Below are positions 33,001 through 36,000 of a stretch of 46,438 nt of DNA, piece after piece; within the stretch, counting starts at the first letter, position 1, and every line of letters starts with the position of its first letter. A program made the position numbers. The stretch is taken from contig CAJOLV010000002.1 of assembly GCA_905235515.1 (NCBI GenBank), positions 85,924 to 132,361 on the forward strand, read 5' to 3'. The DNA is from an uncultured Bacilli bacterium. GTDB taxonomy: Bacteria > Bacillota_I > Bacilli_A > RFN20 > CAG-826.

Positions 33001-36000
33001 GTCATCCAATTGAAGAATTGCTAAAATAAGATAATTACAAAAAAAGTTAGTTTTTTAAGACCCTTATGGGTCTTTTCTTTTTCTCACAAACAAAATATCA
33101 AAAATAGTGCAACTAAAATCGATTTTTTAAGAATAGTTTATAGGAGGACTTTTTTGAAAATGTTAAAAGAAGAGTATATAAATCCATATAGTAATTTGCA
33201 CAAAAAAGAAATCGCTTCCATAGTTAAAAAGCAAATGAGCTTAGAAAGAAAACAAGCTCATTATGATATCATCGGATGGCTTATTAGACAAAATGAATAC
33301 GCAAAGTGCTCAGAGAAATATCGTTTGTCTTATGAATTAAAAGCCGGCGAAATATACGAAGTTGATTTTGGCATTAATGTGAATGCAGAATTCTCATATC
33401 GACATTATGGTCTAGTCTTAGTTGACTCACCAGAATCTAATCCATTGGTTTTAATGTGTCCGTTAAAGACAAACACAAAAGGCGCTCATCGAGCAAGTGA
33501 TATCAACCTCGGAATTATAGAATCGCTTGACACAAAACACGAATCATTAGCGGTAATTAATCAAATTAGATCAGTGGACAAGTTCAGAATATTTAAAAGA
33601 CAAGTAATCGGTAAGAAAGAATTAGAGCAAAGTAAATTTAATGATGTAGAAATAGAAAATTCAAATGATATGATTATAGAAAACATAACACCAAATAGGT
33701 TAGACAATAATCAATATGAAATGGTCATTAATGGCCTATTAAATTACATCAAATATGGCACAATCAACCCAAAACAGTGATATGAGCTAGTAGTTTTCTA
33801 GTAGTTTTAAAATCGAATTAATATGTGGAAAAGTCGAATTATCAACATATTTATAAAATGTTTTTTTATAAGATGATTAATAAATATATCTTGATATAAT
33901 CTCGTTTTTATATAATATGGTTAACATAATGATAATTATGCGAAGTCGTATATAATTCGCTATTTTAATGTGGATTGTGTGGAAAACTATAAAAGAAAAA
34001 AGCTGTTTTATTCACAGCCTCATCTTAACATTGATTTATTCTTATTACAAATATTGATTAAAACATTTGAGGGTTAAACGATTATTGATATCTTTTCTAT
34101 TATTTTCTAAGAAATCTTTATTGGCTTGAAGCACTGTTTTGAATCCAGTTTCTATATTATTCATCATTGCGTTTATTAAATCAGTTGAATCAAATCCTCT
34201 TGTCGGTTCGATTTTATCTGCGGCATAGATAATTTTAGCTAGAGTGCCCATGTTCTCATTGCCTGTTGCGTGAAATTTAATAGCAGCTAATACTTCTTCA
34301 TCCACAATTCCAAATATTGTTTTAGCAATATAGTCGCTGGCAAATTGATGATATGAGAACTTTGGCATATCTAAATATTCTTTATAGTGTTCCACCATTA
34401 TTGGTTTTTGGTCTATTTCTTTTGCGATATCATGGAGTAAACCCGCTATATAAGCGTTATCTGGATTGCTTAAATTGTGCTTTTTAGCGATCTCATAGGC
34501 TAATGAAGCTACACTAACAGAGTGTATAAACCTTTTTTCACTTAAATATTCGCGGATTTTAGGCACGAAATAGAGATTATTGGATACAATATAGTCAATG
34601 ACTCGTTTATCAATTTCTAAGGCGTTTAATCCACGTATATGGGTGGATGAAATCTCTTTTCCATCCCCCACTATTTTTAACATACGATATTCTTTGATGT
34701 TATTTTCATCTAATTGATATCCAGGGCGGGCAAAATAGATAACCTTCACTAGTTCAGATAATTCTTTTGCGTCCTTCCATTTATGGAAGGCGTTAACATG
34801 ATCTGTGCCGATGAGATAATAAAATTCATCATTAGGATATTGCTTAACAAAATGTCTCACTGTATCAATGGAATAATGTTGTTCTTTGCCTTTATTGACT
34901 TCGTATAAATCAACACTAAAGCGTGGATTATCTTTGATAACAAGATCAATCATCTTTAATTTATGTTCAATTGGTGTTGTCTCTATTTTCCACACCGCAG
35001 CGACGCTAGGCAAAAATATGACGTCGGCATCAAGTTGTTTCGCTGCACATGCCGCCATATGAGTGTGTCCGAGATGTATTGGATCAAAAGATCCACCAAA
35101 AAGGATTTTTTTCATTTATTTGACTAATTTGATAACTGGTTTTTCTTTATTCCTGCGGAATAATACGATAACTCTTCCGACGATTTGCACTACCTCAGCT
35201 TTTAAACGTAAGGATAATTCCATCGCTAATGGTTCCATTTCACCATCATAGCCTTTCATGACATCTATTTTAATTAATTCATGAGCCGTTAAAGCTTTAT
35301 TGAGCATATCAATAAGAGTGTCACTAATCTCCTTTTTTCCGAGTTGATATTTGACATCTAACTTAGCCGCGAGAGCTTTCAATTGTTTCTTTTGATTTTG
35401 TGTCAACATAGTTATCTCTCAATCTTGGATAATGTTTCTTTAATCGCAGTGCCTCTTGGACAAATAATTCTCACCACTTGTCCGCGACCGGTGAATCTGA
35501 CCCAGCCCAAACCAGTAACTGCAATATCATGCTCCTTATTATCGGCTTCCATTTGATATTCAAAGACATCGTAATCAGTAAAGAATGAATATCTTTCACT
35601 AACAGGTCTATAAGAACGTCTAGTGACATTTTCTTGGAAGAAAGCATCAATCTTACGATATTTCATCTTTCTCACTTCGCAACCTTCCGCACCATAGAAA
35701 TAGAATGATGTCGGTCTTCCTTTAATCATTGCAAAGCCTGCTAAAGAGCCGACAACCAAAGCATCACCTTCATCTAAAATTTCTCTTTGAACTTTAATTT
35801 CTTTCTTTGGAATAATGAATTTCAAAACCTCTTTTTCCACCTTACCTAAAACGGAAGTGTTAAGTGAGAAACCAGGTAGTTCATAAAATGAACTAGAGTT
35901 AGTCAAAGGAATATCTAAAACTTTTATTGAAGTGTGAGGATATTCTTCTCTTTTAATTGTGCGTTTAGAAGTATTGGTATAACTCTTTAAAATTTTGTTA

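Follow-up and report, generated by a model that had tools for sequence, protein, structure and literature searches.

Maf of B. subtilis is a competence growth-arrest protein. The pneumococcal protein ComM delays division in competence (PMC5696345). In H. influenzae, toxTA is a competence-regulated toxin-antitoxin pair that is driven by Sxy/CRP and often deleted, and cleavage of mRNA with arrest of competent cells has been proposed for it (PMC6957337). SigH of L. sakei is encoded at the cysS-nusG locus and induces the com genes and dprA (PMC3364868). The activity of MazF requires the catalytic residues Arg25 and Thr48, and variants with lysine or serine are known (PMC7354611). The window analyzed here is a stretch of 46,438 nucleotides from an uncultured bacterium of the order RFN20, family CAG-826, whose members are uncultured Bacilli of gut and rumen. 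It contains a lone MazF/PemK-fold gene behind a competence-type promoter box, with the following features on its upstream side.

31788..33029, + strand: upstream housekeeping gene with a Metalloenzyme Pfam match, which from its sequence we take to encode phosphopentomutase (deoB-like)
33057..33074, + strand: intrinsic-terminator-like hairpin between deoB and the box
33107..33141, + strand: bipartite competence-type promoter box, with GTGCAACTAAA at 33107-33117 and GAATAGTTTAT at 33131-33141
33142..33147, + strand: Shine-Dalgarno sequence AGGAGG, immediately 3' of the box
33154 (TTG) or 33160 (ATG)..33780, + strand: lone MazF/PemK-fold gene, 208 or 206 aa

The ORF matches Pfam PemK_toxin (PF02452) with an E value of 1.8e-8 and 35 bits against a gathering score of 23.1; NCBIfam gave a sub-threshold MazF match alone. 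It is the one PemK match in the source genome (G000), which is 92% complete and in which a profile search found no MazE_antitoxin (PF04014) match. The terminator insulates the gene from the deoB transcription unit. It lies about 30 bp from the box, and the upstream gap consists of the terminator, the box and the Shine-Dalgarno sequence alone. Among the 69 testable loci, no co-oriented ORF longer than 47 aa stands between the gene and its upstream neighbor, and ORFs of 30-47 aa occur there in 7. No fused antitoxin domain is recognizable in 20 longer relatives, and an Rfam search of the locus gave no match. The adjacent co-transcribed antitoxin gene of a type II mazEF/pemIK operon is absent, as is the upstream RNA antitoxin repeat array of a type III system. 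The preliminary description had proposed a PemK/MazF-fold gene with no antitoxin neighbor and no co-oriented upstream ORF of 60 aa or more, and both points hold.

A predicted model of the protein (pLDDT 74.5) has an N-terminal helix at about residues 10-53 followed by a MazF barrel. Foldseek matches the model to MazF with an E value of 2.5e-5, and VIA gives a Z of 13.0 to S. aureus MazF (rmsd 3.0, 109 aligned). The VIA scores to CptN (Z 8.5, rmsd 3.9, 112 aligned) and ToxN (Z 6.5) are both below that to MazF. The absence of a PDB match noted earlier holds for the single sequence (0 matches), but not for the structure model or for the family profile, which matches MazF with an E value of 1e-4. 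The profile score above cut-off and the modeled barrel place the protein in the PF02452 fold.

Profile alignment to Bacillus MazFs sets H82 on Arg25 and K103 on Thr48. E77, H82 and K103 lie at MazF active-site positions and are invariant in 54 sequences. In the more distant rows of the alignment the His is present in 81 of 82 and the adjacent Arg (R81 column) in 19 of 82, and the Thr column is variable. On this alignment the canonical pair Arg25/Thr48 is replaced by His and Lys, and catalysis would probably run through His82 and Lys103. R81, beside H82, could shift into the place of Arg25.

The protein is predicted to form a homodimer. The dimer model scores 0.80 against 0.00 for the best control, with runs agreeing in at least 51% of contacts at a pLDDT of at least 71; 20 of 30 solved dimers attain this mark, as does 1 of 23 monomers, and likeness to solved MazF may explain the pass. 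The modeled interface comprises loop 72-77, which packs on residues 138-143 of the partner, and one face of the N-terminal helix. The β1-β2 loop stays packed on the partner, unlike the loop displacement caused by an antitoxin. The earlier suggestion that the N-terminal helix holds the enzyme in check gained no support, and the W..Y helix is a general feature of the subfamily, a phage family included. The dimer model may nevertheless be compatible with self-inhibition despite showing no antitoxin-like loop displacement.

A scan of the source genome for the bipartite box gave nine zero-mismatch sites, against none at 0-2 mismatches in 3 shuffles; this count is partly circular because the pattern was drawn from the same sites. 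A matrix trained without the site of the MazF-fold gene gives that site 41.7, compared with 16.5 for the best of the other sites not used in training. The box sites precede comEA-comEC, dprA, a gene that from its sequence is presumably recA, a double-glycine-leader peptide gene with radC, a 262-aa gene of unknown family, a CxxC lipoprotein gene, two tiny ORFs and the MazF-fold gene. The same box had been claimed before comEA, dprA, recA and radC. This is correct for comEA and dprA, but recA has a variant copy of the box (GTGAAACT..CAATAG) and radC stands second under its box, after the peptide gene.

A 199-aa sigma-70-family (SigH-like) gene is found after cysS-rlmB-like genes in the source genome, and a SigH-like sigma factor likely reads the box. 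Judged by the shared box, the MazF-fold gene is a member of a SigH/ComX-type competence regulon.

Several other box-led genes were observed in the source genome. The 60-aa double-glycine-leader peptide at 4361-4543 (+) of the window, the first gene under its box, has a bacteriocin-signal match and is a candidate competence pheromone or bacteriocin. At C3:10684 (-) and C11:7027 (+), perfect boxes are followed by nothing but tiny ORFs (32-36 aa) whose GC-rich ends look alike; these are candidates for competence-induced small RNAs or peptides. The 262-aa protein is encoded at C16:12472-13260 (+). The CxxC lipoprotein-like gene at C20:28352-28810 (+) lies ahead of what we take to be pcrA/ligA-like genes, and to us its product recalls the BdbD-type oxidoreductases of competence.

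Promoters of relatives were compared in the best-scoring 30 of the 76 genomes with a match. The upstream sequence of the gene was set against the dprA/comEA upstream sequences of its own genome and of other genera. The own-genome dprA/comEA promoter ranked first for the MazF-fold gene in 13 of 30 genomes and for the rpsT control in 2 of 29; in the positive control, comEA against dprA, the own genome was first in 16 of 30. With the Tad-operon promoter as the reference, the own genome came first for the MazF-fold gene in 10 of 16 cases, compared with 1 of 16 for rpsT, after 4 of 20 loci were dropped (G079, G019 and G074, where the operon start was not reached, and G072, at a contig edge). The Tad references of G059 and G115 were chosen using the motif. 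With the dprA/comEA and Tad references combined, the own genome was best in 17 of 30 (G059 among them), compared with 3 of 29 for rpsT, and the box test failed in the other 13. By genus the same test gives 9 versus 3 of 17 genera, related genomes being non-independent. The box of G021 lies outside the 85-base window used for scoring and was counted as a miss; by eye it matches its own dprA. The Tad operon of g19 and of G145 has a different motif, and the MazF-fold gene there carries that motif too. G183 belongs to another family, and by eye the sequence upstream of its gene is similar to the one before comEA.

Genus g48 fails the test throughout. In none of its four genomes is the upstream sequence of the MazF-fold gene closest to the competence promoters of that genome, whereas comEA and dprA do match the Tad promoter in the three with a Tad reference. 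By this comparison the box is lost in g48. A sigma-A promoter read by eye in these genomes was not upheld by a scan. The promoter evidence is now stronger than in the preliminary description, which had compared the upstream sequence with that of the own dprA in 5 relatives, because the box co-varies with each genome's dprA/comEA or Tad-pilus promoter.

The Tad operon found in these comparisons has at least four genes, including an ATPase that is TadA/VirB11-like and not ComGA (e.g. L232 of G039, L317-L336), and it carries the dprA/comEA box in several genera. Such an ATPase exceeds the T2SSE cut-off in 39 of 47 genomes; no pilus ATPase over the cut-off was found in the source genome. The promoters make a Tad-type competence pilus likely in these Bacilli, which suggests that these reduced gut Bacilli take up DNA by a Tad-like pilus under a SigH-type box. 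The prepilin N_methyl profile was not found in 5 genomes. In family f7 (the L289-L294 genomes), dprA is present in 5 of 5 and a search for PF03772, the ComEC family, had no match in the 5, so the uptake channel has possibly been lost or has diverged there.

Of the 151 family genomes, 76 have the MazF-fold gene, as do 57 of the 109 of high quality, and it is found in 32 of 48 genera; across the order the profile matches 84 of 251 genomes. ComEC is present in 141 of the 151. The gene is therefore dispensable, and it is an accessory rather than part of the core competence machinery. The preliminary count of a single copy in 26 of 41 genomes is right for the source genome, but 11 family genomes have two PemK matches. 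One of these is a split gene and ten are a weaker paralog, which in all three inspected cases lies behind what we take from its motif to be a rimO/miaB-like gene. Among 20 weaker order-wide matches that were inspected, 17 are this second lone paralog after the rimO/miaB-like gene, two are slot genes of genus g38 and one lies elsewhere. The second paralog forms a single clade in the tree (12 included) and by eye does not share the dprA box. Lack of an antitoxin thus does not require competence control. The paralog is about 180 aa long with a longer E..H loop and often an upstream GCATAT (L269-L280, L282-L284, L287, L288), and its place after the rimO/miaB-like gene is fixed in several families of the order.

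The MazF-fold gene is inherited vertically under purifying selection. Five pairs have a dS below 1, and their dN/dS values are 0.054-0.075; the other pairs, with values up to 0.24, are saturated. In the MazF-fold tree, single clades unite the members of five of six multi-member genera, as in the DprA tree. In a tree of 69 proteins, the dif-linked genes do not form one clade against the unlabeled matches. All four inspected g38 slot genes (L117, L118, L281, L286) are intact ORFs from which the whole GxNxxxExxxxH loop is absent. Comparison of the slot gene of G016 (L107, 180 aa) as a possible homolog gave a probability of 0.9% and an E value of 0.061, and the gene may be a still more degenerate copy.

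It is improbable that the gene is a passenger. In that case a mobile gene would have landed in the slot at the terminus and happened to acquire a competence promoter, as has been proposed for toxTA; it would bring little benefit and be on its way to loss. No match was found in whole genera (for example g8 0/6, g10 0/6, g11 0/6, g25 0/5, g26 0/5), 2 of 76 loci are split or truncated, and unrelated genes sit in the slot elsewhere; toxTA is likewise frequently deleted (PMC6957337). However, a dN/dS of about 0.06, like that of DprA, already weakens this explanation. The promoter has also been re-tuned in step with the competence box of each species, and selection on regulation is therefore required.

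The position of the gene is related to the replication terminus. The features that bear on it are as follows.

30881..31774, + strand: XerD-type tyrosine recombinase gene (Phage_integrase and SAM_1 Pfam matches), putatively xerD, about 2.1 kb from dif
33788..33804, + strand: direct repeat TAGTAG-N5-TAGTAG with an 11-bp period, part of the dif/terminus module and not of the gene
33824..33832, - strand: DnaA-box-like TGTGGAAAA, assigned on what we take to be the DnaA-box consensus, in helical phase with the repeat and about 95 bp from dif
33919..33946, - strand: chromosomal dif site (XerC/XerD core), at a switch of GC skew and gene orientation
34045..35115, - strand: nadD fused to an HD (yqeK-like) domain (CTP_transf_like and HD Pfam matches), convergent, on the far side of dif

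The dif site lies 138 bp past the stop codon and is the only zero-mismatch match of the degenerate pattern in the source genome. It is 3' of the gene in 29 of 30 loci. In 76 loci, which overlap those 30, the strict pattern is found in 58 and a variant in 12 (70 of 76); 4 loci are truncated and 2 outgroups are without dif. A further 17 dif loci have no recognizable MazF-fold gene, and there the slot is empty or filled by other genes. The gene had been described as fixed in a place convergent with nadD. The place is indeed fixed, but this is due to dif and the terminus and not to nadD, because dif marks the slot even without the gene. The gene stays at dif while its upstream neighbors vary, and does so in another family of the order as well. 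Relatives have a gene about as long as this nadD fusion (about 360 aa). A Xer-integrated mobile element (IMEX) or dif module was considered and ruled out, since there is a single dif with housekeeping genes on either side.

The TAGTAG repeat persists in 15 of the 17 dif loci without the gene. Its copies cluster around dif, as seen among the genomes examined for this (G000, G016, G038, G034, G068, G066). In G000, 7 of 9 are on C2 (82175-128865) within about 40 kb, and C11 carries others; 11 of 12 lie within 36 kb in G016, and 8 of 8 within 50 kb in G038. One copy is about 120 bp from dif, and the DnaA-box-like 9-mer mostly follows spacers of 8, 19-20 or 30 bp.

This conservation bears on whether the gene is an ordinary TA toxin with its antitoxin gene at another locus or, in type III-like fashion, with an RNA antitoxin in the conserved stretch 3' of it. 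Such an arrangement is highly improbable. The fold does resemble CptN and ToxN as well as MazF, and conserved non-coding sequence follows the stop codon. However, the conserved 3' DNA is not an antitoxin, because dif and the TAGTAG module occur without the MazF-fold gene; the repeats are ruled out both as an RNA antitoxin and as the protein's own binding site. The negative Rfam and MazE searches, the short distance from terminator to box and the small size of the intervening ORFs also argue against it.

Proximity to dif could also point to a non-catalytic role. The dimer would then bind ssDNA, RNA or a protein partner in transformation, possibly linking it to the resolution by Xer/dif of chromosome dimers that arise from transformation; pneumococcal transformation reportedly forms dimers, which are resolved by XerS. 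Replacement of both MazF catalytic residues, the g38 genes that remain intact at dif without the active-site loop, and retention of the gene beside dif with differing upstream neighbors are consistent with such a role. It is quite unlikely, however, as the invariant Glu, His and Lys at active-site positions look catalytic, and dif with the TAGTAG module persists where the gene is missing or other genes fill the slot. The position of a gene also says nothing of where its protein acts.

The nearest phage relatives are found in PHROG 1412 (phrog_1412), which matches with an E value of 4e-14 across the helix and loop (residues 40-108), and the closest phage families belong to the moron category. 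Matches of tblastn to Streptococcus phages are weak (E 4e-3 to 1e-2, 3 records). In the two Streptococcus records inspected, the PemK-like gene adjoins an integrase and has no annotated antitoxin. The PemK-like subfamily comprises 861 clusters at 50% identity in which the His and the W..Y helix are kept. Judged by sequence likeness, antitoxin-less PemK-like genes in the lysogeny modules of prophages are the likely source of the gene.

These relatives raise the possibility of competence-timed defense. The protein would be a latent effector of abortive infection or against mobile elements; the cell would make it on opening to foreign DNA, and an invader signal alone would trigger it, as with the lone PemK-like morons of prophages. 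The moron category of the nearest phage families and the integrase-linked Streptococcus genes fit this explanation. Being latent, such an effector could dispense with an antitoxin and endure loss of the box, as in g48, and patchy loss is typical of defense genes. Nonetheless it is unlikely. The PADLOC 2023 library returned 0 families for 4 proteins, the phage tblastn matches are weak, and a single fixed locus, a genus-congruent tree and strong purifying selection are unlike fast-turnover defense genes.

The MazF-fold gene has no antitoxin beside it, adjoins dif and in many species shares the promoter signal of DNA uptake, so a tamed accessory of competence is a likely description. The preferred reading, held tentatively and at a little below an even chance, is a His/Lys-type endoribonuclease dimer of low toxicity that serves natural competence under SigH gating. 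A SigH-like factor would switch competence on, and the MazF-fold protein would be made mainly then. It would trim translation or slow growth during DNA uptake, and it would be controlled by transcription and a narrow or weak activity rather than by an antitoxin. This reading is weakened because Arg25 and Thr48 are not kept, the loop is lost in g38 and the box is lost in g48. The preliminary description had already proposed a domesticated competence gene. Of that proposal, the missing antitoxin neighbor, vertical inheritance and shared promoter remain, and self-inhibition by the helix and a position fixed by nadD do not.

A more far-reaching version is doubtful. In it, a phage-derived His/Lys MazF variant would have been domesticated early in the order RFN20 and fixed at dif, its SigH promoter co-evolving with the Tad-pilus regulon. 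It would act as a checkpoint that needs no antitoxin and keeps translation or division on hold while transformed chromosomes await resolution at dif. If true, this would establish both a new catalytic class for the MazF fold and a further effector of competence that is new. The gene offers a first handle on a large uncharacterized antitoxin-less PemK-like subfamily with His in place of the MazF catalytic Arg, and it exemplifies the domestication of a toxin fold, unaccompanied by an antitoxin, in a host regulon. If the protein is active, the growth pause of competent cells becomes testable with one small protein and two point mutants.

An orphan MazF-fold gene in a competence regulon appears to be new, whereas a competence-regulated toxin-antitoxin pair is already known. 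The earlier statement that no such orphan had been described agrees with a literature search that found none; its coverage was limited and without supplements, and regulon tables may hold one. The protein is like the MazF/PemK endoribonucleases (B. subtilis EndoA 4MDX, S. aureus MazF 4MZM, B. cereus MazF 7BXY) in its barrel, the Glu in the β1-β2 loop, the QIR-x-DK-x-R motif and the predicted homodimer. It differs from them in having no MazE gene, His/Lys for Arg25/Thr48, an extra 50-residue N-terminal helix, a competence-type promoter and a fixed place beside dif. Among the lone PemK-like genes of temperate phages (PHROG 1412, 1936, 13411; Streptococcus phage phi891591 AGF87593), PHROG 1412 shares the helix and loop, and the Streptococcus phage genes have no annotated antitoxin neighbor. 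Unlike them, the gene here is chromosomal and vertical, stays at one fixed locus with neither integrase nor repressor around it, and mostly has Lys in the column of Thr48. It shares with toxTA a toxin gene under a competence regulon (PMC6957337), but toxTA has an antitoxin and is often lost within one species, whereas the orphan MazF fold is under purifying selection across genera. With the SigH/ComX regulons (PMC3364868) and the growth-arrest proteins ComM and Maf, the system here has in common the alternative sigma factor at the cysS locus, the box before comEA-comEC/dprA/recA/radC and a possible growth-slowing member. It differs from them in its species-specific box, a pilus ATPase nearer TadA/VirB11 than ComGA, and a MazF-fold protein as the candidate effector.
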